DNA from: Escherichia phage PSD2002
Length of the DNA stretch: 64,000 nt
Direction: 5' to 3' (one strand)
Sequence record: OK335775.1
Shown one piece after another: positions 9,225 through 60,334 of this stretch (the stretch's first letter is position 1; the number at the start of each line of letters is the position of its first letter). Position numbers and translations under genes: made by a program. The notes beneath the pieces are model-generated. The model searched no databases. It was not told the origin of the DNA and worked only from the letters and a program-made list of their open reading frames with translations.

Positions 9225-10989
9225 CAGATACTTTAGCTAATGAACCGCCATCCATATGCACAGTATTTGATGCGTTTAAATTAATGTTCGTCGCTGCAAA
9301 ATTTAAATCTTGTTCGACATTTACATCCATATTTTGAGCATTGATTGTGGCCTTTTGTTTAACGCTTATATCTGCATTCTGGTTGACATTAACTGTTGTA
9401 TCTTTTTCAACCGTAATATATGCTTCTTGTTCAACAGTTATATCAGCAGTACCCATAATAACTATTTTAACATTTCCTTTAACAAGCAGAGTTCCATTAC
9501 CTTCTACAGTTTTGGTTTCATTCCCTCGAATATGAATGCTTTCAGACCCATCAGTTTGACGGCGCACGTTTGCCATATTATAATAGGTTTCATCGCCACC
9601 AACGTTGACTTTATTATTACCACCAACATAAGTATTTGAATCGCCTTGGGTCATATAATAACCATCGGCTACCGTCTTAGAAGTTTTACGTCCATCAGGA
9701 GCAACTTCTTCATAACTACCGGTAGGATGGATTAAACGGTATCGTTCTTGCCCTGGGGTATTATCGAATTCTTGGATATGCCCGCCTTCAGTTTGCATGG
9801 TTTGGACATATGGATATTCGCCTTTATAACTAGAATCAGGTTCTTTAAAAAGAATCCTTGTGTCTTCTGGAGTCCACGGGTCGGCAGGGTCTGAATTTGT
9901 AGGGGCCACAAAGGTTTGAATCATTCTATACGAACGGCCATTAAATGACCTTTCTTTAGGGGCCATAATACCATATGATTCCATGTTACCTGTGAGGATA
10001 ATCATTGACACCCTTGATGCGCGACCTTTAGTTTGGTTAAACCATACCGAATTACGGGCTTCTTCAAATGCCTTTTTATAATCGCCTATTAACATTGCAC
10101 TAAGCATTCCACGGAATTTAGCAAGCCCACCTAATCCCATTTGGAAAGCCATGTTTTCAAGAGCCATTTGTCTCGAACGGTTTTCTTTATTATAAACAGG
10201 ACCTACAACACTATGCAGGCCTATATCATTTTGGACTTTTTTAAGGTCGTCTTGGAATAATTTAGAAACCTCGTCCATTGATATTGCACCAGGGTTACCT
10301 TTAACTTCTCGTCCTACCTGATTAGATAATATTTTGTTTATTTGATTCATATCTCTAATAGGTTGTGGCGTAATAAGGTGACCTATACCTATAGTAGGAT
10401 AACCTTCGGTATCCCAATATACCTTCAGTCTAAGCCCTTCATCACGATGAAGCATGTTTTCTATTGTGAAATTAGGATTATCATCAGGCTTGACTTGGCT
10501 CAAATCCAAACCGTCTGGGTTAATACCTACATCGGTGTTTGCATCTTGTATTACGTTGGAAGTGGCATCATATCCAACTTCACCACCTCGGTTTAAAGCC
10601 GCGGCATCATTACCTAAATAAAGTGGGTATTGACCTGTCGGGTCGCTAAAACCTTCATTAGGATTAGCCTTTTGTCTTGAAGCGGAACCGTATGTACCAA
10701 GGACCAGTCCGTTTAATTTCCACTTATCAAGAAAATGCCCATAAACCTGTGTACCAGGAACCATACCGGTCATGGCGGTTTGAATACCTGAAACAGAGGC
10801 TGAAGATGTAGGCATTAATACCGACATCCATGGTAAATCTTCTGTACGAAGGCCTTTTACTGGACCTTGCACTTTTTCGTATGGATGCATGCCCCATACG
10901 CGCACGCGTACTCGGCCTTGTTGGAGTGGGTCCATTCGGTCTTCAACTACGCCGACGAACCAACTGACATTATCAGACATGTTAATCAT
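9202..10989 (-). CDS. 5: baseplate hub subunit and tail lysozyme gp5
   Basis: 595 aa; N-terminal OB region NVSWFVGVVEDRMDPLQQGRVRVRVWGMHP; lysozyme segment DEGLRLKVYWDTEGYPTIGIGHLI; C-terminal repetitive VxVxxN beta-helix. Confidence 0.9.
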   Translation of the reverse strand: MINMSDNVSWFVGVVEDRMDPLQQGRVRVRVWGMHPYEKVQGPVKGLRTEDLPWMSVLMPTSSASVSGIQTAMTGMVPGTQVYGHFLDKWKLNGLVLGTYGSASRQKANPNEGFSDPTGQYPLYLGNDAAALNRGGEVGYDATSNVIQDANTDVGINPDGLDLSQVKPDDNPNFTIENMLHRDEGLRLKVYWDTEGYPTIGIGHLITPQPIRDMNQINKILSNQVGREVKGNPGAISMDEVSKLFQDDLKKVQNDIGLHSVVGPVYNKENRSRQMALENMAFQMGLGGLAKFRGMLSAMLIGDYKKAFEEARNSVWFNQTKGRASRVSMIILTGNMESYGIMAPKERSFNGRSYRMIQTFVAPTNSDPADPWTPEDTRILFKEPDSSYKGEYPYVQTMQTEGGHIQEFDNTPGQERYRLIHPTGSYEEVAPDGRKTSKTVADGYYMTQGDSNTYVGGNNKVNVGGDETYYNMANVRRQTDGSESIHIRGNETKTVEGNGTLLVKGNVKIVIMGTADITVEQEAYITVEKDTTVNVNQNADISVKQKATINAQNMDVNVEQDLNFAATNINLNASNTVHMDGGSLAKVSGGNVQVG

Positions 10990-11636: not shown

Positions 11637-12086
11637 ATGGCCTACTCAGGGAAATTTAAACCTACAAACTTACAAAAATATAAAGGTGATTGGAAGAAAA
11701 TCCAATATCGTTCCTCTTGGGAAGCATGGCTTATGCGTTGGCTTGACAACCATCCTAATGTCGTCCAGTGGAACTCGGAAGAGGTTGTGATTCCATATTT
11801 TAGTAACGCTGATGGAAAGAAACGTCGGTATTTTATGGACTTCTGGGTGAAGTTCGACAATGGTCAACAATTCTTTTTCGAAGTCAAACCTTTTAAAGAG
11901 ACCCATCCTCCAGCGGCGCCTGCTAAAATGACTACAGCTGCTAAAAAGAGATATATCAACGAACATTATACATGGAGTGTAAATAAAGATAAATGGAAAG
12001 CTGCTAAAGCTACAGCAGATAAAATGGGAATTAATTTCAGATTGATTACCGAAAACTCACTGAAAAAATTAGGATGGAAAGGATGA
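11637..12086 (+). CDS. 4: head completion protein gp4
   Basis: 149 aa; [19 protein letters not shown]... resembles T4 gp4 as I recall it (about 150 aa); synteny 53/4/2/3/1. Confidence 0.8.
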
Positions 12087-12910
12087 GTATATTTTCTTAC
12101 ATCAACGAGGCTACTGAAACTACAAAAGGTTCCAAGCCTACTCGTTCAGAACAACAATGGATAACTTTAGGCGTTGAATATGCCAACGCTAAGGCTAAAG
12201 GTGTTTCGGCTAAGAAATTCGCTGAAGATAAAGGCATCAAGTATTCTAGCTTTACATCTGCGATGTCTCGATACTCGAGTCGAATTAAAACTGCTGTACA
12301 GGTTGAAAAACTTCAGAAGAAACCTGGCAATAAATTAACCAAAGCCGAACGTCAATTAATTTTGGTGAATAGTTTTAGAAAGAGTATTCGCGATAAGATT
12401 GCTAACGAAGGCGCTGCCGTAAACAATAAATCAGCTAAATGGTTTACAGAAACATTAAAGAAAGGAATTCGTGGACACCAGGTATCTAAACCGTCTCCTG
12501 GTAAGCTTTATGCTTATATCTATGATGCCAAACATAAGGATACCCTACCATACTGGGACAAATATCCTTTAATAATTTATCTTGGGTTAGGTAAGCATAA
12601 TTTAATGTACGGACTGAACTTACACTATATTCCACCTAAAGCACGTCAGCAATTTCTGGAAGAATTGCTGAAGCAATACGCGAGTACGCCTACCATTACG
12701 AACTCGACTAAATTAAAAATCGATTGGAGTAAGGTAAAAGGATTCGCTGGCGCCGACGTGATGATTAAGGCTTATATCCCTGGAAATATTAAGGGACCTT
12801 TAGTAGAGATAAAACCGTCTGATTGGGCTAATGTCGTAATGATGCCGCTCCAACAGTTCATGTCTAAAGGCAAGCGTTATTCAGCTCAGAAAGTATGGAA
12901 GAATTCATAA
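12083..12910 (+). CDS. 2: DNA end protector protein gp2
   Basis: 275 aa from the ATG overlapping the gp4 stop (ATGA); T4 gp2 is 274 aa; an alternative in-frame ATG lies at 12074. Confidence 0.7.
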
Positions 12911-16240: not shown

Positions 16241-16621
16241 ATGTATAAAGTGTATGCAGATTATCAGGCAAATCCATCTGAAAAACCAGATTGTCAAATT
16301 GGGTGGGCACACGACACCCTGCTTAAGGCGGTAGATAAAGCCCAGGAATTAGGGTATAGTTATGTGGATATTGTTCAACCCAATGGGACCGTTATTACAC
16401 TTGAAGAATTCAAGAATATCAAAACAAACTTTTTGCTCTTTGCGGGTGATAACTATTACCCTCGTGGCGGTTATGCCGACTTAATCGCAAAGGCCGCTAC
16501 TGAAGATGAACTGCGCGATATCATTAAAGAAAATGAGAATAACCCTCTTTACGGTTCTAATCGTTTTGACTGGTGGCAGATTGTTAATGCCAATACCCAT
16601 ACTATTGTAGACGAGGGTTAA
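16241..16621 (+). CDS. hypothetical protein
   Basis: ORF with AAAGGTGAG SD; start immediately after the stop of the upstream gene. Confidence 0.5.
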   Translation: MYKVYADYQANPSEKPDCQIGWAHDTLLKAVDKAQELGYSYVDIVQPNGTVITLEEFKNIKTNFLLFAGDNYYPRGGYADLIAKAATEDELRDIIKENENNPLYGSNRFDWWQIVNANTHTIVDEG

Positions 16622-16912
16622 ATGTTATACGTTAAGGTTACTAATCCAGAGAATGGATATAATTCAGACCAGGTTGCAGCAGAGCTACTGATTCGCAACT
16701 TTGGCAAAGGTGCTGTGCTTGATGTCCAACAGGTTAATATTGGTCGTAGTTCAAGCGACGTTAAACTAAAAGTTAACGGTCGCCGTTATAATTCTGTTAA
16801 CTTTACTTTCTACACCGCAACTGAAAACGGGTTGGTCGAATACGACATCTTTAAAAATCCTTTGAAGATTGCTTCTATTAAACTTGATTACATTAATATG
16901 TGGCCACAATGA
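16622..16912 (+). CDS. hypothetical protein
   Basis: 96-aa ORF, ATG overlaps the upstream stop (TAAATG). Confidence 0.5.
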   Translation: MLYVKVTNPENGYNSDQVAAELLIRNFGKGAVLDVQQVNIGRSSSDVKLKVNGRRYNSVNFTFYTATENGLVEYDIFKNPLKIASIKLDYINMWPQ

Positions 16913-17086
16913 ACCAAATTTGACCAGACTATTCCTAAAAATAGTAATATGCTTTAAGAGTAATGTGTTATTATTACTCTATCATTAATACCCTCTATTA
17001 CCAAAGGTTCTTCCCTCAAAGAACCTTTCATAATAGACAAGGTCTATTAATCAAACTTACTTTACTTAATTTTATTTGAGGTGTTT

Positions 17087-17353
17087 ATGTTAGTATTAAA
17101 ATTAGCTTTTTATGACCCGGCAACCAAGACAACAACAACCAAACGTTGTTCTATTTCATATGAATGTCAATTTGGTGAAGTTGAGACCGACGGCGGGCCC
17201 TTTATGGCAATTGCCGATAGCACATTCGCTAAACCAAAAATAATTCCACTAGTTAACGCTGCGGCTTATCTGGTTGCTCCTGAAGAAATGACTTATCACA
17301 CAATTCAGCACATGGCTAAAGATGATAATGCTCCTGCTGGATTTGTAGTTTAA
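17087..17353 (+). CDS. hypothetical protein
   Basis: 88-aa ORF with GAGGTG SD-like sequence upstream. Confidence 0.45.
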   Translation: MLVLKLAFYDPATKTTTTKRCSISYECQFGEVETDGGPFMAIADSTFAKPKIIPLVNAAAYLVAPEEMTYHTIQHMAKDDNAPAGFVV

Positions 17354-20094: not shown

Positions 20095-20631
20095 ATGAGT
20101 TTATATGATAACCTTATATCAAATATTGATTGGTTTAAAAATAGTGGTCTTTCCCATGAAACCAATTCAGTTCTTTATAGAATTCGCCAAGACCTAGGCT
20201 ATTCAAACGATTTCTTAAGCAGAACATCTAGCCGTGGGCATACTACCAAATTACCCTTTATCTTTGCTTTAGCTGAGGACCTTTCTTTTGCAGATGCTTT
20301 AGAAATTATTGACCTTGAATTAGGTATACAACGTGTGGAGTTCGCTGGGCTACGCTATTCAGTATACTCTTTAAATGAACCAAGCGATTATAAACAGCTT
20401 GTTGATGCCGACGATGATTACCATTTAGTATGCTATTTGATGTTAGAAAATGGTGACCACTTTGGTATGGTCGACCGCCGCCCGAGTTATTCGGATATTA
20501 AAAATTACGATAAAGATGAGCTTATTATTTTAGCCAATGAGTATACATCAGAGATTCGTAAACAACAACGTAAACTTAATCGTTTTATTACTGAATGTCG
20601 CGAATACGCTAAAGAGGTTCAAAATGCATAA
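20095..20631 (+). CDS. hypothetical protein
   Basis: 178-aa ORF with GGAGGAGAGGAG SD region. Confidence 0.5.
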   Translation: MSLYDNLISNIDWFKNSGLSHETNSVLYRIRQDLGYSNDFLSRTSSRGHTTKLPFIFALAEDLSFADALEIIDLELGIQRVEFAGLRYSVYSLNEPSDYKQLVDADDDYHLVCYLMLENGDHFGMVDRRPSYSDIKNYDKDELIILANEYTSEIRKQQRKLNRFITECREYAKEVQNA

Positions 20632-35694: not shown

Positions 35695-36147
35695 ATGATT
35701 ATCAATGCAAACTCTTGGCACGTTAAATTACACGACCGTTTTTATGACCGTCATTCTCGACCACACTCTTTGTGTGCTTACTTCTGGAAAATGGTTTGGG
35801 CTTGTTTTGCTTGTGCTGTTGTTGCAGGTAGTACGCTTTTTGGATTAACTGTTGCAGGTGTTGGTGTATTAGAGCATTTCTTTGTATTAAGTACCCCTGT
35901 TCTGTTGAGTCTAGGGTTTGTTTTAGGATTGGTTGCAATAGCTCTTATTATTGCGCTATCCATTGGTTTGGCATTCGGTGTGATGAATTTACACTCATGG
36001 TATGATTTACGTAAAGAAGAAAAGGAATGGCAACTAATTAAAGCTAAACGTGAAGGAAAGGAAATTAAAGAAAACATTGTTATCCAATATATCAAAGCTC
36101 GTAAATCTAAGGTCTGTCCGGTAATCCATTTTGAGGCGAAGAAATGA
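35695..36147 (+). CDS. membrane protein
   Basis: Hydrophobic segments MVWACFACAVVAGSTLFGLTVAGVGV and LLSLGFVLGLVAIALIIALSIGLAFGV. Confidence 0.45.
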   Translation: MIINANSWHVKLHDRFYDRHSRPHSLCAYFWKMVWACFACAVVAGSTLFGLTVAGVGVLEHFFVLSTPVLLSLGFVLGLVAIALIIALSIGLAFGVMNLHSWYDLRKEEKEWQLIKAKREGKEIKENIVIQYIKARKSKVCPVIHFEAKK

Positions 36148-37154
36148 GAACAGTTGTTAAGGGCTACTTCGGTAGCCACCTTTATGGAACAAGTACTCCG
36201 GAATCTGATGTCGATTTTAAAGAAATCTTTGTTCCGCATCCGCGTGATATTCTGTTAGGTACGGCTATGAACCATACCAACCTGAACACGAATAACACTG
36301 CTTCCAAAAACACTAAAGATGATGTTGACCATGAGCTTTATAGCCTGAAATATTTCTTTAAACTGGCTGCTGATGGCGAAACCGTTGCTCTGGATATGCT
36401 CCACACTCCACCTGAACTGGTGGTTAAATCTGATTTACCTGATGTATGGAAATTTATCCAAGACAATCGTTCTCGGTTCTATACGACTAACATGAAAGCC
36501 TATTTAGGGTATGTCCGTAAGCAAGCTTCTAAATATGGTGTTAAAGGTTCTCGTCTGGCTGCTCTGCGTGGTGTACTGGCTATTGTTAACCAGATTCCTG
36601 AACAGTGGGTCGACTATCAAGAAGGAATCCCTGATAGACTTCGTCGTACTAAGGTAGAAGATATCAAACATCGACTCCCTGAAAACGAATTCTGTGAATG
36701 GGTATTCCATAACCATGAGAAAACAGGCCCTCAAACGTTCTATACTGTTCTTGGACGTAAGTACCAAACTACTTTATCTTTAATCGAGCTCAAGCAATCT
36801 CTGAATAAGCTCGATGCGGAATATGGTGAACGGGCCCGTAAAGCTGAAGCTAACGAAGGTATTGACTGGAAAGCTCTGAGCCATGCTTATCGCGCAGGGT
36901 ATCAATTGTTGGAAATCTACCAAACAGGCGACCTGGTGTTCCCATTGCGCGAAGCCTCTATCATTAAGCTGATTAAAGCCGGTGAATTACCATTTAAAGA
37001 AGTTCAAGAACTTCTTGAAGATACTGTTGATTTGGTTGAAGTCCTAGCCATCCAGGCATCTAAGAACGGTATGCCTGAGAAGGTAGACATGAAGTTCTGG
37101 GACAAGTTCGTTGAAGAGGTATACCTCGACAACCACAACTCGTATTATAAATGA
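36144..37154 (+). CDS. Pol-beta superfamily nucleotidyltransferase-domain protein
   Basis: N-terminal GS-x10-DVD motif (YFGSHLYGTSTPESDVDF); C-terminal helical region. Confidence 0.55.
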   Translation: MRTVVKGYFGSHLYGTSTPESDVDFKEIFVPHPRDILLGTAMNHTNLNTNNTASKNTKDDVDHELYSLKYFFKLAADGETVALDMLHTPPELVVKSDLPDVWKFIQDNRSRFYTTNMKAYLGYVRKQASKYGVKGSRLAALRGVLAIVNQIPEQWVDYQEGIPDRLRRTKVEDIKHRLPENEFCEWVFHNHEKTGPQTFYTVLGRKYQTTLSLIELKQSLNKLDAEYGERARKAEANEGIDWKALSHAYRAGYQLLEIYQTGDLVFPLREASIIKLIKAGELPFKEVQELLEDTVDLVEVLAIQASKNGMPEKVDMKFWDKFVEEVYLDNHNSYYK

Positions 37155-37159
37155 TAAAA

Positions 37160-37178
37160 GGCCTTCGGGCCTTTTTTT
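37160..37178 (+). terminator. rho-independent terminator
   Basis: GGCC-TTCG-GGCC followed by TTTTTTT. Confidence 0.7.
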
Positions 37179-37197
37179 GGGTTTAGTGCAAAAAAGA

Positions 37198-37227
37198 GTT
37201 TACACTCTCGTAGAGCATGTTATTATG
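37198..37227 (+). promoter_or_regulatory. T4-type early promoter cassette
   Basis: GTTTAC ... TGTTATTATGGACCTATCAAA plus conserved leader GAGTGAAATGGAGAATATAATG. Confidence 0.55.
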
Positions 37228-37263
37228 GACCTATCAAATCTACTGAGTGAAATGGAGAATATA

Positions 37264-38244
37264 ATGTTAACTATCAAAATCAACAAAGGTATCTATCGCG
37301 GTAATGTAATCTCTGGTACGTTCATGAGTTCAGGTAAAACCTGGTTCCCTAATAAAATTCATGAATCCGAAGCTCACCTAGGTGATGGCAAGGTATTCGT
37401 ACAGATTGATGGTGTTGAACGTGGTGTATGGGTGTTCAAATGTGATATCGAAACCGAAGGTGCTGGAGCTCCTGCAATGGTTACTGAATCCGCTGAAGAA
37501 ATGAAACATCGCATTAACAAACGTTTTAAAGTAATGAACATGATGACTAATGGAATCATCGATGGTAAAATTCGTTCCCTTATCATCTCTGGTGCCGCAG
37601 GTATTGGTAAAACGTATTCTTTGGATAAAGCATTACAGAATGCCCACGAAAATGAAACTATCGAATATAAATCAATCAACGGAAAGATTAGTGGAATCGG
37701 CCTTTACGAGCAGCTTTGGAATAACCGCGGCCCTAATAGTGTTCTTCTTATTGATGATGTTGATGTATTCTCTGATATGGATATCCTGAACCTGTTAAAA
37801 GCAGCATTGGATACTGGTGAAAAACGTAAGGTGTGCTGGAGCACTTCAAGTTCTTATCTTGATGATAAAAATATCGATAAAGAATTTGAGTATGAAGGCA
37901 CCATCGTGTTCATCACCAACGTTGATATCGACCGTGAATTAGAGCGTGGAACTAAACTTGCTCCACACCTCCAGGCTTTAGTATCTCGTTCAGTTTACTT
38001 AGACCTCGGAGTTCACTCTAACGAAGAGATTATGGTCCGTGTTGAAGACGTTATCCTGTCCACTGATATGATGCAAAATCGAGGTCTGACTGATGCTGAG
38101 ACTTATCAAGCACTGTCCTGGATGAAGGCTAATGTATCTCGTCTTCGTAACGTATCATTACGTACAGCTCTTTATCTGGCTGACTTCATTGCCACCGATA
38201 AAAATGACTGGAGCGAAATCGCTGAAGTTACACTTCTGAAATAA
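37264..38244 (+). CDS. AAA+/P-loop ATPase
   Basis: Walker A GAAGIGKT, Walker B LLIDDVD; start chosen at the ATG after GGAGAATATA. Confidence 0.6.
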   Translation: MLTIKINKGIYRGNVISGTFMSSGKTWFPNKIHESEAHLGDGKVFVQIDGVERGVWVFKCDIETEGAGAPAMVTESAEEMKHRINKRFKVMNMMTNGIIDGKIRSLIISGAAGIGKTYSLDKALQNAHENETIEYKSINGKISGIGLYEQLWNNRGPNSVLLIDDVDVFSDMDILNLLKAALDTGEKRKVCWSTSSSYLDDKNIDKEFEYEGTIVFITNVDIDRELERGTKLAPHLQALVSRSVYLDLGVHSNEEIMVRVEDVILSTDMMQNRGLTDAETYQALSWMKANVSRLRNVSLRTALYLADFIATDKNDWSEIAEVTLLK

Positions 38245-38598: not shown

Positions 38599-38649
38599 GT
38601 TTACATCTCCAGTAGAAATGATACTATAGACCTATCAACTACTGGAGGT
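38599..38649 (+). promoter_or_regulatory. early promoter / stem-loop cassette (PeSL-like)
   Basis: GTTTAC ... TGATACTATAGACCTATCAA; inverted repeat ATCTCCAGTAG / CTACTGGAGGT encloses the -10. Confidence 0.6.
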
Positions 38650-38653
38650 TAAC

Positions 38654-39178
38654 ATGAACGCTAAAGATATTTTTTCACTCATCAATTATAACAATGGTAA
38701 TTTCAAATCCGAAAAACAAAGCAAGTTCTTTAACGACGTTGCTTGTGGTAATGAGATTACTGTATCTGGAGGAGAGATTTACAAAAGCCGTTGGAACTGG
38801 ATTGTTGTCATCGATTCAGTCGGTATTGTAGAGCTCTATAAAAACACTAACAAAAAACGTACTCTTCACTGGAGTCGTGAAACCAATCAAGCTTATCAAG
38901 CTGAACGTAACAAACGTTTAATGCCTACCGAATCTGACCTGGCAAACGTTAAATCTGATATCGCTTATTTCGATAATCTGATTGCTGAACAACAAGCTGT
39001 TATTGATAAGTTTGACGAAATCAAAGCTTGTAAAGAGATTCCTGAATTCATGCGGGAATCAGTAAACGAACAGTACGCCCTCACTTCAGGTCGTATCGAG
39101 CAGTACAAATCACAACGAGCTGAACGCCAAGCTCTGCTTCAGAAATTTGAAGAGCGTTTAAAGACGGTTCTCGCATAA
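38654..39178 (+). CDS. hypothetical protein with C-terminal coiled coil
   Basis: 174-aa ORF. Confidence 0.45.
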   Translation: MNAKDIFSLINYNNGNFKSEKQSKFFNDVACGNEITVSGGEIYKSRWNWIVVIDSVGIVELYKNTNKKRTLHWSRETNQAYQAERNKRLMPTESDLANVKSDIAYFDNLIAEQQAVIDKFDEIKACKEIPEFMRESVNEQYALTSGRIEQYKSQRAERQALLQKFEERLKTVLA

Positions 39179-39180
39179 AC

Positions 39181-39203
39181 GCTTTATACCAAGGATGGTA
39201 TAA
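39181..39203 (+). promoter_or_regulatory. possible middle-type promoter (MotA-box-like GCTTTA plus TATAAT)
   Basis: GCTTTA followed 12 nt later by TATAAT; tentative. Confidence 0.3.
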
Positions 39204-39241
39204 TGGTTCTAGGTTCTTAATTACTTACTGAGGAAATTATT

Positions 39242-40081
39242 ATGTCACAGGCAATTAATCAAATTCGTTCTGAAGTTAAAAAAGTTGTTAAATTCGGACG
39301 TATTCCGAGTTCTAAAGAAGTGGTTGAAAAGGTTTTGGCCATGATGTGGGAAAAGTTTGAAGTTTGTATTTCTGTAGATGAATTCACTAAAATCTTTGAC
39401 AAGACTAGGATGTTTACGTTAGAAGACCGAGTCATGAAATCTCTTCACAGGGCAGGTATGTTGACTCGTGCTAACGCCAGAATTATTCTTAGAAATTATA
39501 ACAAAGGCTATGACCTCTATGGTCGTTTAATCCCGGCGATGTCATTTGATGAAGTTGTTAAAGACCTTCGTACTAACCAACGACGTTTACTAGCACTGGG
39601 TGCTCGTCTAGCTTTAGGTAAAGATAAGCAAATGCCATTTAAGACTAATGGTTCAGGCGATTGGATTATCTTTAATATTGTCAACCAACCAGGTAACGAA
39701 AACGAGTATCTTACTTCAACTTTTAGTGGTTGTCAATATGACAACTGGAAATTCCATCTTCGATTGGCTTTGTCCGAACTCGAACGTAGCGGTATTCTTA
39801 CCTTCGATAATGTTAATACCAGTACAGGCTGGCGTATTAAACTTGTTAAGCCGGGTAATGAAGTTAAGAGTCATTCAGAAGCTCCTAAACCGGAACCTGT
39901 ACCAGTGCGCAGCAATGAGAAACATCAAGCCCAGATTGAGTATTTTAGCAATTTGCTTACTTGCTTGAATGTTACAATTCAGCAACAAGATGATGAGATT
40001 TTCCGACTCTCTGGTCTGAATGCTAAAGCCAAGGCTGAACGCCAGAAATATATCGATATCCTAAATCTTCTTAAGGATTAA
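39242..40081 (+). CDS. hypothetical protein with Pro-rich linker and C-terminal coiled coil
   Basis: 279 aa; SD TGAGGAAA. Confidence 0.5.
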   Translation: MSQAINQIRSEVKKVVKFGRIPSSKEVVEKVLAMMWEKFEVCISVDEFTKIFDKTRMFTLEDRVMKSLHRAGMLTRANARIILRNYNKGYDLYGRLIPAMSFDEVVKDLRTNQRRLLALGARLALGKDKQMPFKTNGSGDWIIFNIVNQPGNENEYLTSTFSGCQYDNWKFHLRLALSELERSGILTFDNVNTSTGWRIKLVKPGNEVKSHSEAPKPEPVPVRSNEKHQAQIEYFSNLLTCLNVTIQQQDDEIFRLSGLNAKAKAERQKYIDILNLLKD

Positions 40082-40082
40082 T

Positions 40083-40298
40083 ATGGCTACTTTAATTATT
40101 GGTTCTATTTTTGGATACCTTGTGATAGGATTCATTACTACTGTATTAATCCACAAATTTGACAGCTGTTTTGAAAAAGGTGATGAGTATGATGCAGTGT
40201 TCACTACTCTCGCCTGGCCTATATTCTGGGTTACAGGTATTGTTCTGGCTATAGTGTGGCCTATGGCTAAATTCTATAAAAAATTATTTGGACTTTAA
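40083..40298 (+). CDS. small membrane protein
   Basis: 71 aa with two hydrophobic segments. Confidence 0.4.
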   Translation: MATLIIGSIFGYLVIGFITTVLIHKFDSCFEKGDEYDAVFTTLAWPIFWVTGIVLAIVWPMAKFYKKLFGL

Positions 40299-40299
40299 T

Positions 40300-41169
40300 A
40301 TGAACATTAAAACACGTAAAGAATATTCCCGATATGATTTTGGTGTAACCAAGCGTATCGCTATCGATCGGCTGGCAGACTTTGGCCATATTTGTAATGG
40401 TAATTATACTTATGGTGTAGGTCGTAAAGGGACTTATATTAGTTCTTTAAATGATTATTGCCGAAGCCCAGCCCACCTGTTTGGTGCAACACTACGAGCT
40501 AATATCAAAGACCTCTTGGCTACTGCAGGACGTATTTCTACGGTTCCTGTCAATATCAAGAATATTAATTTTACGGCTCGTAACCTAGTCATTAATATTC
40601 TGCCTGACGGTATTCAAGTTCGTTTCCGTCCTACCTCAAAAGGTAATAAGGCCCTTCGTGAAGCATTCGAAACCTTATTCAGAGAGGCAATGACCCGTAT
40701 TAAGGCAGTAGAATCATATAAAGTTACAACCGATGAATATGCTGATTGTTTTGAGCGGGCTGATGCAGTGTATTTTAATGTTAAACTAACTCGTGAATAT
40801 CTTTTGTCTTATGCCCCTTATCAATCCCAACAAAAGGACCCACAAATGGAACGTCGTATCTCTGCAGTATCATGTGACAGTGTAGGCCAGTATGCGGCCT
40901 ATGACAAATTCAAAACCACTGCGGTGCCTAGTCCATTCAATTCCGAACCTTATCATTGGAAAATTAAACCTGATAATTCTTTGGTTGTTACTAACCCTAC
41001 GATGAAACCTATCGAGAAGTATCATGAGGACCACCTCCAGGAATCAATCCACCGTTTAAACGGCCAGATCGAAGATGAGAAAAAGAGTATTCAAGACGTA
41101 TTGATTCGCATCAAGAACATGGAAATCCAGCGTGACAAGCTTAGCGCGGCAGTATTAGCTCTAAAATAA
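40300..41169 (+). CDS. hypothetical protein with C-terminal coiled coil
   Basis: Start chosen at the second in-frame ATG (an alternative ATG at 40288 lies inside the upstream gene). Confidence 0.5.
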   Translation: MNIKTRKEYSRYDFGVTKRIAIDRLADFGHICNGNYTYGVGRKGTYISSLNDYCRSPAHLFGATLRANIKDLLATAGRISTVPVNIKNINFTARNLVINILPDGIQVRFRPTSKGNKALREAFETLFREAMTRIKAVESYKVTTDEYADCFERADAVYFNVKLTREYLLSYAPYQSQQKDPQMERRISAVSCDSVGQYAAYDKFKTTAVPSPFNSEPYHWKIKPDNSLVVTNPTMKPIEKYHEDHLQESIHRLNGQIEDEKKSIQDVLIRIKNMEIQRDKLSAAVLALK

Positions 41170-41170
41170 T

Positions 41171-41200
41171 GTTTACATCCAAGGACGGATGGAGTATAAT
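41171..41200 (+). promoter_or_regulatory. T4-type early promoter
   Basis: GTTTAC ... GGAGTATAAT. Confidence 0.55.
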
Positions 41201-41227
41201 CTTTTTAAATCTACTGAGGAGAATATC

Positions 41228-42238
41228 ATGACTCGTACTGAATACATCAATGCCTTTACTACGTATATCACTACCAACACCCCTCCGTTAACCCCATACG
41301 AGGTAATAGTTTCTAATATCAATAAATGGGTCGACCAAATTGATGATGCATTATCGCGCTGTTTCAAAGCTGAAATCGAAAAGATTGCAGGCCGTTTGTG
41401 CATTCATGATATCATTAAAACATTTAAAGGTTCTCGACTGCTTTCGCGCCTGGTCAATAAGGACATCCTTTCTGAGTTCGGTAAAGAGAAATATCCAGGT
41501 TCCAACCGTGTTGTTAGCTACAAATGGTTTGGTGATACCATAAAAGGTTATATCAAAATTAAAGGTATGGACCCTAATAGTTTATTTCCGCAACGTTGGG
41601 TTAGCGAATTCAAGGCTAACTCTGCATTAATTCTCAAAGCGGCCTCTAAAACTATAGTTTCCGGTGATTGTCGTACTATTCACCCGATGGCTAATTGCAT
41701 GATTAAAACAAATAGTTATAAAGGAAAAGCTATTATTTCTGTTATTTGGTCACCTAATAGGAAACCTAAAGATGATGTGGAAGTTGTAAAGTATCAAGAT
41801 ATTGCTTACGATACCTTGAATACTATCGAACAAGCTTTAGCTCTGATGGATACCGTAGAGAAATATGAGACCCAAGAAGTTAAACACCACTTAGGCTGGA
41901 AAGGATATGAAGTCTTAGTAACAGTCCGTGAAATCAAATGTACCGTTCCAAAAACTGATGCTGAAATTTACCAAGAAAAATGTGAGGAAATTGTGAACAC
42001 TGATAAAGAGCCTGCTACATTAGAAGACTTGATTAACGACTTGAACAGCCCTATCATGGCCCCTACACCAATTACTAAATCCAAGTTACCGGAAGTCGTT
42101 GCCTTGGAAAAAGCGTATAAAGATGCCCTTGCTATTAACAAAAAACTGACTGGCCAATATACCGCCGCCAAGAAACTTTGGGAAGAGTCTACCAATCGTT
42201 TAGACCGTCTTGAACAGGCTCTGGGGCTGCTGAAATGA
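41228..42238 (+). CDS. hypothetical protein with C-terminal coiled coil
   Basis: ATG after TGAGGAGAATATC. Confidence 0.5.
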   Translation: MTRTEYINAFTTYITTNTPPLTPYEVIVSNINKWVDQIDDALSRCFKAEIEKIAGRLCIHDIIKTFKGSRLLSRLVNKDILSEFGKEKYPGSNRVVSYKWFGDTIKGYIKIKGMDPNSLFPQRWVSEFKANSALILKAASKTIVSGDCRTIHPMANCMIKTNSYKGKAIISVIWSPNRKPKDDVEVVKYQDIAYDTLNTIEQALALMDTVEKYETQEVKHHLGWKGYEVLVTVREIKCTVPKTDAEIYQEKCEEIVNTDKEPATLEDLINDLNSPIMAPTPITKSKLPEVVALEKAYKDALAINKKLTGQYTAAKKLWEESTNRLDRLEQALGLLK

Positions 42239-59833: not shown

Positions 59834-60334
59834 ATGAAAAAGTTAATTATCGCAATGAGTATGCTCCTATCAGGTTGCGCGGTCCAATATGGTGATGCAG
59901 TTTCGGCCGATGAAGTTGGTAAAGCTCGTATCGCAGCTGAACAGAAACAATTCGATGGCGAAATGAAATTCCGTGCAGGTTCTGGACTTGTGTACACCCG
60001 AGCTAATAATCAATGCGGTAATAACTGTGCAAAATATGCTCAACGAGAAATCGAATTCCAACGTGAACAAGAGTCCAAGCGTGAAGCGGTACTAGCCAAA
60101 CACCAGGCAGAAATGAAGCGTCAAGATGATTTGTACAAAAAGCAGAAACTGTATGCGATGTGCGTAAACCATATCAATCTACAGATTTCCATCCACGAGG
60201 CTCGTTATTACGAAATGCTCGAAACCGAGAGCTTCGGTAAAGCTCGTGATTATAAGAAACAAATCAATAAGCTCAAGACCAAAGCACTGGCGGCAATAGA
60301 ACAGTGTATTGAAATCGGTAAAGATAAGATTTAA
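59834..60334 (+). CDS. lipoprotein
   Basis: Signal peptide with lipobox LLSGC; charged helical mature domain. Confidence 0.55.
   Translation: MKKLIIAMSMLLSGCAVQYGDAVSADEVGKARIAAEQKQFDGEMKFRAGSGLVYTRANNQCGNNCAKYAQREIEFQREQESKREAVLAKHQAEMKRQDDLYKKQKLYAMCVNHINLQISIHEARYYEMLETESFGKARDYKKQINKLKTKALAAIEQCIEIGKDKI

Follow-up and report, generated by a model that had tools for sequence, protein, structure and literature searches.

Probable tandem paralogs with heptad-rich C-terminal tails in the nrdC.8-nrdC.4 block of Escherichia phage PSD2002

Dsr1 is a SIR2-domain defence that is thought to deplete nicotinamide adenine dinucleotide (NAD+), and the phage T4 protein that counteracts it, NrdC.5, belongs to a gene cluster whose counterparts in Escherichia phage PSD2002 are analyzed here. 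The analysis covers a 64,000-nucleotide stretch of this genome (sequence record OK335775.1; the whole stretch is called the window) and focuses on four genes starting at 38654, 39242, 40300 and 41228, all on the + strand, which are paired with T4 nrdC.8, nrdC.6, nrdC.5 and nrdC.4 through the annotated T4 genome and an all-against-all blastp comparison. T4 nrdC.5 is an early, non-essential gene; supplied from a plasmid, it allows a T4 deletion clone to plate again on MG1655 with dsr1 of ECOR17, and disruption of dsr1 in ECOR17 likewise restores the plating of this clone (Srikant et al., eLife 2022, PMC9391042). The genes of the block have long been known as T4-family genes and are uncharacterised, only NrdC.5 having a phenotype (anti-Dsr1). 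A literature search on the T4 nrdC cluster, DUF7235 and Dsr1 inhibitors returned only the eLife 2022 NrdC.5 result and incidental mentions, and in the literature searched we found no paper that relates NrdC.3, NrdC.4, NrdC.5 and NrdC.6 to each other or describes a shared tail. An earlier annotation made from the letters alone (the sequence-only reading) had placed the four genes and their starts correctly, had described their products as having unrelated N-terminal domains and similar C-terminal coiled-coil tails, and had suggested a family of effectors with a common tail for oligomerisation or targeting; our results confirm the observation behind it and partly support the interpretation, which is half right.

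We compared the window proteins with the closest described systems. The product of the 40300 gene (the NrdC.5-like protein) is like T4 NrdC.5 in its full-length match to the Pfam family DUF7235, in its gene position, in the junction NP[TS][ML]KP[IV]EK[YW]H and in the end of its tail, but the two are 25% identical, and the window protein is shorter at the N-terminus, where it lacks about 45 residues that T4 NrdC.5 has. Residues 1-289 of the NrdC.5-like protein align with DUF7235 profile positions 9-307 with an expectation value (E) of 5e-115 and 384.5 bits (cut-off 30), and T4 NrdC.5 matches the same profile with E 5e-126 and 420.6 bits. The 40300 gene lies between nrdC.6 and nrdC.4, as T4 nrdC.5 does, in a comparison of 19 loci. 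The window 41228 and 39242 genes are clear orthologs of T4 NrdC.4 and NrdC.6, and NrdC.3 links the families in profile space. Window NrdC.8 is like T4 NrdC.8 in its 69% identity and in having the same globular N-domain and helical half, while its tail sequence is not conserved in the wider family. The phage protein DSAD1 blocks a SIR2-type NADase defence and is in this sense a functional analogue of the NrdC.5 lineage; DSAD1 acts on DSR2 of Bacillus and NrdC.5 acts against E. coli Dsr1, and the likeness is one of function. To call these proteins effectors is plausible because T4 NrdC.5, whose ortholog family includes the 40300 gene, counteracts Dsr1 (PMC9391042). The reading we favour, which we hold to be fairly probable, is that NrdC.6, the NrdC.5-like protein and NrdC.4 of the nrdC.8-nrdC.4 block are, together with T4 NrdC.3, diverged tandem paralogs that serve as early accessory proteins with oligomerising tails.

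Profile and model comparisons of NrdC.3, NrdC.4, NrdC.5 and NrdC.6

Family alignments built from homolog searches and fetched loci were compared by hhalign, for which ten reversed-profile controls score 11-23. The results show that NrdC.3 and NrdC.4 align over their full lengths (residues 2-308 with 1-336) at a probability of 97.6% and an E of 4e-12, and three further pairs are linked, namely NrdC.3 with the NrdC.5-like protein (P 9e-4), NrdC.3 with NrdC.6 (P 2e-3) and NrdC.4 with the NrdC.5-like protein (P 2.6e-3). All four linking alignments are colinear, reach the C-termini and score 29-88. In blastp, T4 NrdC.3 matches window NrdC.4 (E 3e-7) and window NrdC.6 (E 0.018), and pairwise comparison among the four window proteins gives nothing significant. 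The family phrog_26858 matches both the 40300 and the 41228 proteins. A motif that we defined post hoc, MD[VT]VE[KSN][YF]/IKAVESY, lies centrally in NrdC.3, NrdC.4 and NrdC.5, and among the 635 six-frame open reading frames (ORFs) of the window it occurs only in the 40300 and 41228 proteins. Pfam and PHROGs file NrdC.4, the NrdC.5-like protein and NrdC.6 as separate families; PF26897 is carried by all 29 homologs of window NrdC.4 and PF26899 by 103 homologs of window NrdC.6. In the local Pfam copy, DUF7235 is the only family matched among the four genes, the other matches belonging to neighbouring genes. Searches of viral contigs for related loci returned two loci with T4 NrdC.3 and 13 with the NrdC.6 alignment, all too similar to deepen the profiles.

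AlphaFold2 models were made for two proteins, the NrdC.5-like protein and NrdC.6, and both show the same order of elements: a long helix, a beta-hairpin, a helix, a beta-hairpin, a disordered linker and a long tail helix. In the NrdC.6 model (predicted local distance difference test score, pLDDT, 78.6), a helical N-terminal region at residues 3-123 is followed by a beta-beta-alpha-beta-beta unit at 144-202, the linker and the tail, and the NrdC.5-like model consists of an alpha/beta N-domain (14-170), a predicted disordered linker (172-237) and a tail helix (238-288). The helical tails expected by the sequence-only reading are present in both models, and the shared element order speaks against its view that the N-domains are unrelated. 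In Foldseek searches, both models match the same BFVD entries, which are uncharacterised proteins of 300-370 amino acids (aa) from other T4-like phages. The E values for the NrdC.5-like and NrdC.6 models are, respectively, 6.5e-9 and 1.4e-7 for the entry from Enterobacter phage IME523, 1.4e-5 and 7.7e-7 for Pectobacterium phage PM2, 1.4e-4 and 1.3e-3 for Yersinia phage fHe-Yen9-01, and 3.6e-4 and 1.2e-2 for Serratia phage PS2. The NrdC.5-like model also matches NrdC.6 of Shigella phage Sf25 (E 0.02, probability 0.91).

Within Sf25 NrdC.6 (378 aa), a stretch of about 80 aa at NrdC.6 alignment columns 198-280 is duplicated in tandem, and the duplicated unit comprises the beta-beta-alpha-beta-beta region and the start of the tail. 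In fHe-Yen9-01, the BFVD match is, judged by length, gp111 (313 aa, tail ...AFIRALTALDAI), which adjoins a NrdC.10 homolog at the place where T4 has NrdC.11. A second protein of this phage, gp94 (292 aa, tail ...LQESLRTLK), matches the hidden Markov models (HMMs) of NrdC.6, NrdC.3 and NrdC.4 at the equivalent helix, and both gp94 and gp111 (locus coordinates 9459-10337 and 16382-17323) appear to belong to this scaffold family as remote members.

We conclude with moderate confidence that NrdC.6, the NrdC.5-like protein, NrdC.4 and T4 NrdC.3 are probably remote full-length paralogs. Because full-length paralogs sharing one layout would have received their tails with the rest of the protein, the tails appear to be inherited parts and not a module fused to unrelated domains. 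The proposal of unrelated N-terminal domains accordingly fails for the 39242, 40300 and 41228 proteins, which look like remote paralogs in the colinear profile alignments and, for the 39242 and 40300 models, in the common BFVD matches, and holds for the 38654 protein, which belongs to a separate family.

C-terminal tails and the separate NrdC.8 family

All four window proteins end in long, charged, heptad-compatible helices, which bears out the heptad-rich C-terminal tails that had been described for them. Three home-made heptad measures were used, and their scores stand for coiled-coil propensity, not assembly; the term coiled coil for the window tails is likewise meant as a propensity predicted from sequence. 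When 84 non-overlapping window ORFs are ranked by their best C-terminal 28-mer (background mean 3.99, standard deviation 2.07), the four genes take ranks 1, 2, 5 and 6 with scores of 9.4, 8.6, 6.8 and 6.75, the NrdC.5-like protein being first, NrdC.8 second and NrdC.4 fifth. We estimate that four consecutive genes would all rank among the first six of 84 by chance with a probability of about 8e-6 if the set is fixed beforehand, and of <1e-3 if any run of four is allowed. Ranks 3 and 4 are held by the ORFs 20095-20631 and 59834-60334. Against whole-protein shuffles, NrdC.8 (p 0.01), NrdC.6 (p 0.02) and the NrdC.5-like protein (p 0.005) all lie above the 95th percentile, and the NrdC.4 tail lies below it (p 0.14). 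Against shuffles of the tail segment, scored by hydrophobic occupancy of the a and d positions, NrdC.4 (p 0.006) and the NrdC.5-like protein (p 0.012) stand out, NrdC.6 is marginal (p 0.057), and NrdC.8 is weak (p 0.18), with two Arg in core positions. The a/d occupancy of NrdC.4 is 0.85 in the tail versus 0.28 elsewhere.

Compared with GCN4-type leucine zippers, the window tails appear to share an unbroken 3-4 hydrophobic spacing over 6-7 heptads with charged residues at the other positions. The NrdC.5-like tail is also like these zippers in having Ile at a and Leu at d, a combination that by classical coiled-coil rules would suit a parallel dimer. Unlike GCN4-type zippers, the core of NrdC.4 includes Tyr, Trp, Asn, Ser and Ala, NrdC.6 has a Gly-containing break and NrdC.8 has Arg in the core.

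The tails of NrdC.6, the NrdC.5-like protein and NrdC.4 share one heptad register fixed to the C-terminus, together with the end motif L-x-x-A-[LIV]-x-x-L-K, which lies at the C-terminus or one residue from it (NrdC.6 has one extra residue); for the NrdC.3-.6 group as a whole the motif reads L-x-x-A-[LIV]-x-x-L-[KN]. At the end, the register runs d Leu, g Ala/Ile, a Leu/Ile/Val, d Leu and e Lys/Asn, followed by the C-terminus. The regular expression [LIVMY]xx[AIS][LIV]xxL[KN]x{0,1}$, a motif defined post hoc, matches 3 of 260 window ORFs, only these three. We also compared ungapped tail profiles anchored at the C-terminus over 43 shifts. In all six pairs of NrdC.3, NrdC.4, NrdC.5 and NrdC.6, bringing the terminal Lys residues into line gives the highest-scoring of the 43 shifts or one of the three highest; the best shift of NrdC.6 places its LLK on the terminal LK of NrdC.3 and NrdC.4, and free column shuffles give p values of 0.0002-0.01. 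The lone cross-match of a tail HMM is that of NrdC.5 to the T4 NrdC.3 tail, which is end-to-end (E 0.007), and the last 50 positions of Pfam DUF7235 (258-307 of 307) align to NrdC.3 259-308 (E 0.18). Within families, the tails are conserved as much as or more than the rest of the protein, non-core positions included; the conservation of the NrdC.4 tail is 0.78 versus 0.67 for the rest of the protein, and that of the NrdC.6 tail is strong across its family. As far as sequence comparison goes, three of the four tails have a real, though weak, similarity to each other, in which NrdC.8 has no part; the claim of similar tails survives for the 39242, 40300 and 41228 genes in the form of register and end motif, and is lost for 38654.

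The Pro-rich linkers that had been noted ahead of the tails in the 39242 and 41228 genes translate as quoted, APKPEPVPV and PTPITKSKLPEVV, and the stretch PVPVRSNEK is almost invariant across the NrdC.6 family. The NrdC.5-like linker has a Pro-containing VTNPTMKP at 40987-41010, comparable to the other two linkers, and its residues W220, N232, K236 and P237 are invariant. The segment EYLLSYAPYQ, which begins just upstream of this linker, is invariant too, and together with the linker invariants it suggests that the linker is no passive spacer and contains short linear binding motifs.

The predicted tail of the NrdC.5-like protein is one 51-residue helix (238-288), and the tail helices of NrdC.6 are split at SGLNA in the model. 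In the NrdC.6 family alignment, the motifs NYNKGYDLYGR, NQRRLLALGARLA and DDEIFRL are invariant, and the window tail is as in the non-T4 Tequatrovirus orthologs. The T4 reference NrdC.6 (nrdC.6, 12067-12894 of the compared T4 locus) has 275 aa and ends in ...EELIFLFNNMMMKFSDYLD, and the 296-aa NrdC.6 orthologs of other Tequatrovirus have the conserved tail ...EELNISIQQYDDEIFRLSGLSSKAKSEREKLIKIVDLLKS; comparison of these ends indicates that the T4 reference tail is probably lost by a frameshift in the sequence.

In NrdC.8, the first 90 aa or so form a conserved N-domain (FKSEKQ...GV motif region), and the C-terminal half, residues 92-174 (38927-39175), is helical. This N-domain recurs in 51 diverse cluster representatives, which match residues 3 to about 90, and in all 46 of the 46 NrdC.8 relatives scored (140-280 aa) it is followed by a heptad-like, non-conserved helical half; one homolog is annotated with Pfam PF26901 (Phage_T4_Y05D). 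By hhalign, NrdC.8 scores at the control (null) level against the NrdC.3-.6 families, and the C-terminus-anchored comparison of its tail with the other tails shows no similarity (p >0.07). These two results and its different N-domain led us to reject NrdC.8 as a fifth paralog. To judge from the alignments, its family is unrelated to the NrdC.3-.6 group and has its own poorly conserved helical region. The protein ends (39167-39175, ...KTVLA) in a nonpolar -VLA-COOH, also found in the T4 ortholog, and a resemblance of this end to ssrA-like ClpX recognition ends is purely speculative.

Weighing paralogy against other explanations

Several results weigh against the reading of NrdC.3-.6 as paralogs with oligomerising tails. 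The profile scores of NrdC.4 with NrdC.6 and of NrdC.5 with NrdC.6 are at the control level, and NrdC.6 is joined to the group only via NrdC.3, Foldseek and its tail. Except for NrdC.3 with NrdC.4, the hhalign probabilities are 11-23% because the family alignments are shallow (effective number of sequences, Neff, about 2). The NrdC.5-like model has a pLDDT of 62, which is moderate confidence. Each tail passes at least one heptad test and none passes all, the home-made tests disagreeing for individual tails; one or two Gly residues are present in each of the four window tails, and the tail of NrdC.6, as modelled, may form a helical hairpin instead of a coiled coil. Searches of the family tail HMMs, of which that of NrdC.6 is contaminated by truncated members, against the 635 six-frame window ORFs and the T4 proteins give no match between window tails. 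In the anchored comparison, heptad-preserving shuffles give marginal p values of 0.014-0.15, and therefore most of the tail signal is the shared C-terminus-fixed register plus the short end motif, not specific sequence. The anti-Dsr1 activity, finally, has been shown for T4 NrdC.5, to which the window protein is 25% identical.

Some of these points are shared by the view that the tails are generic amphipathic helices, common in small phage early proteins, whose register and Leu-Lys end are convergent or coincidental and serve no common function. This view, which we consider unlikely, agrees with the missing HMM cross-matches inside the window, the marginal heptad-preserving shuffles and the post hoc definition of the end motif, and likewise with the high C-terminal heptad scores of the ORFs 20095-20631 and 59834-60334 and with PDB matches of the tails to weak coiled coils only (SMC, E 0.21; MARVELD2, E 0.32). 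It leaves unaccounted for the agreement of the anchored shift in six of six pairs, the end-to-end match of the NrdC.5 tail HMM to the NrdC.3 tail and the alignment of the DUF7235 tail to NrdC.3, and it also conflicts with the strong tail conservation within families, surface positions included, and with the ranks of the four genes among the 84 ORFs.

It is quite unlikely, in our judgement, that domain shuffling provided structurally unrelated N-terminal effector domains with one common C-terminal module for oligomerisation or targeting. The profile alignments are full-length and colinear rather than confined to the tails, there is a common central motif and a common order of secondary-structure elements, both models match the same full-length BFVD proteins, and the NrdC.8 tail is dissimilar to the others; these results outweigh the separate filing of the families by Pfam and PHROGs, the lack of significant blastp pairs among the window proteins and the common end motif and register, all of which shuffling would explain, as it would the truly unrelated N-domain of NrdC.8 ahead of a helical tail. 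The DNA direct repeats of the region include no tail-sized repeat that would point to a recent transfer, and recent gene conversion or transfer of a tail module was rejected on this result.

Least probable of all, and improbable in its own right, is that the paralog tails form one mixed complex or all dock on one host or phage partner instead of forming homo-oligomers: the common register and end motif, the adjacent and co-directional genes behind early-type promoter candidates, the conserved non-core tail positions that suggest a specific interface and the NrdC.4 core, atypical of a stable homodimer, would suit it, but the differing paralog content of the genera, with NrdC.3 absent from Dhakavirus, and the 25% identity of NrdC.5 between genera argue against an obligate fixed complex, and plasmid-borne NrdC.5 alone rescues the Dsr1 phenotype, though the infecting phage may supply other paralogs.

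Gene map, annotation and wider reading

The features of the region are collected in Table 1. The window genome is that of a Dhakavirus (T4-like; Straboviridae, Tevenvirinae); over 3.6 kb, the DNA of the region shares 98% identity with Enterobacteria phage vB_EcoM_IME540 and 97% with Escherichia phage Bp7 (Dhakavirus), and 590 T4-like phage records match it. The order of the genes is conserved in a table of 19 loci: Dhakavirus and Gaprivervirus-type loci read C9-C8-C6-tm-C5-C4-C2, and Tequatrovirus loci read C8-C7-C6-C5-C4-C3-C2. NrdC.3 is absent from the window genome and, in this table, from Dhakavirus. The starts of the 40300 and 41228 genes are backed by homolog N-termini. A GAGGAG ribosome-binding site precedes the 41228 start, and the nrdC.4 start is placed there and not at 41189 because of the position of the second promoter candidate. 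The small hydrophobic ORF keeps its position in Dhakavirus and Gaprivervirus-type loci and has no family match, and its product is probably a membrane protein with two transmembrane segments. In T4, an unrelated membrane protein, NrdC.7, lies between NrdC.8 and NrdC.6 instead of this 71-aa ORF. Two neighbouring genes lie upstream (36144-38244). One encodes NrdC.11, a nucleotidyltransferase of the RlaP type (Pfam E 2e-11), and the other NrdC.10, an AAA/STAND-like ATPase that may carry a helix-turn-helix at its C-terminus. They are separated, at 37156-37175, by a strong GC-rich hairpin that has a T-run after it on either strand.

Table 1. Features of the nrdC.8-nrdC.4 block in the window of Escherichia phage PSD2002
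Feature	Position	Strand	Description
Promoter candidate upstream of nrdC.8	38600-38627	+	sigma70-like (T4 early-type), TTTACA-16-TACTAT, 9/12 matches, TG extension; consensus match only
NrdC.8 ortholog	38654-39178	+	174 aa; 69% identity to T4 NrdC.8; matches phrog_2274
NrdC.8 C-terminal heptad-like segment	39092-39175	+	residues 147-174, RIEQYKSQRAERQALLQKFEERLKTVLA
NrdC.6 ortholog	39242-40081	+	279 aa; 47% identity to T4 NrdC.6, E 3e-36
NrdC.6 Pro-rich linker APKPEPVPV	39881-39907	+	from translation; AlphaFold2 pLDDT <50 at residues 208-225
NrdC.6 tail	39911-40078	+	residues 224-279; helices 224-255 and 261-278; end ...YIDILNLLKD
Small hydrophobic ORF	40083-40298	+	71 aa; no T4 ortholog
NrdC.5-like (distant NrdC.5 ortholog, Pfam DUF7235)	40300-41169	+	289 aa; 25% identity to T4 NrdC.5 over 300 aa, E 5e-18
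NrdC.5-like linker	40813-41010	+	pLDDT <50 at residues 172-244; ends at conserved NPTMKP junction
NrdC.5-like tail	41011-41166	+	52 aa; a mostly Ile, d mostly Leu; end ...KLSAAVLALK
Promoter candidate upstream of nrdC.4	41172-41200	+	sigma70-like, TTTACA-17-TATAAT, 11/12 matches, best of region
NrdC.4 ortholog	41228-42238	+	336 aa; 44% identity to T4 NrdC.4 full length (344 columns), E 5e-85
NrdC.4 Pro-rich linker PTPITKSKLPEVV	42062-42100	+	from translation
NrdC.4 tail	42101-42235	+	45 aa, unbroken 3-4 spacing; a/d residues LYANLYAWSLLLL; end ...LEQALGLLK

Many GenBank and UniRef orthologs of NrdC.3-.8 carry the label 'thioredoxin'. A thioredoxin or glutaredoxin identity was rejected: no thioredoxin Pfam match was obtained at E<=0.01, the four sequences contain no CxxC, and the two predicted folds are unlike that of thioredoxin. 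The label is an artefact that has spread by name from the 'nrdC.x' genes. A 2026 DRT1 paper puts T4 nrdC.8 among 'nucleotide reductases' (PMC13275509), an identity that the sequence of NrdC.8 does not support. None of the five ORFs is matched by the PADLOC defence-system HMMs or NCBIfam. PDB sequence and profile searches with the four proteins gave only coiled-coil or chance matches (E >0.2); no solved structure or known fold was matched by these proteins.

NrdC.5 is 25% identical between genera, and its neighbours are 44-72% identical. NrdC.3 falls into roughly three classes of identity to the T4 protein (>=90%, about 60% and about 56%) or is absent. Seen at the sequence level, this pattern of divergence at NrdC.3 and NrdC.5 fits an arms-race locus.

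If NrdC.3-.6 are diverged tandem paralogs, one ancestral gene would have given rise to the tandem copies NrdC.3, NrdC.4, NrdC.5 and NrdC.6. The copies would have retained a layout of a variable helical N-terminal region, a conserved core of a helix and a beta-beta-alpha-beta-beta unit, a flexible Pro-rich or disordered linker and, at the C-terminus, an amphipathic heptad helix that is 45-55 aa long and ends in L-x-x-A-[LIV]-x-x-L-K. They would be expressed early from sigma70-type promoters, and the tails could form a coiled-coil dimer or oligomer, the Ile-a/Leu-d pattern of the NrdC.5-like protein being compatible with a parallel dimer. The flexible linker may then allow two or more N-domains to grip an oligomeric host target with avidity, and the diverged N-domains would give each paralog its own specificity. 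The pathway targeted by the NrdC.5 lineage would be the SIR2 NADase defence Dsr1, and it is plausible that the paralogs act against further host factors or defences by neutralising them. We thus infer that the tandem array encodes early accessory proteins which probably serve in anti-defence and oligomerise via their tails; oligomerisation, direct binding and an anti-defence role would apply to the paralogs and to the 25%-identical NrdC.5-like protein alike.

A broader reading, which we put forward tentatively and regard as doubtful, is that NrdC.3-.6 constitute an unrecognised Straboviridae-wide superfamily of modular counter-defence proteins, in which a fast-diversifying N-terminal recognition domain might be displayed in at least two copies by a conserved C-terminal coiled coil on a flexible linker, and that each paralog might neutralise an oligomeric host immune sensor of its own, Dsr1 being the first known of these targets. 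Should this be true, NrdC.3, NrdC.4 and NrdC.6 and their relatives in T4-like phages of Yersinia, Klebsiella, Serratia and Acinetobacter would become anti-defence candidates.

The new point is the probable paralogy and the shared scaffold, which tie three uncharacterised proteins to an anti-defence member; the gain is incremental and no new kind of system is involved. The 'thioredoxin' annotation and the description of nrdC.8 as a reductase need correcting. If NrdC.3-.6 are one paralog family, DUF7235, PF26897 and PF26899 should be linked, the tail would provide an experimental handle, and the NrdC.5 result would extend to testable hypotheses for three more T4 genes and many relatives.

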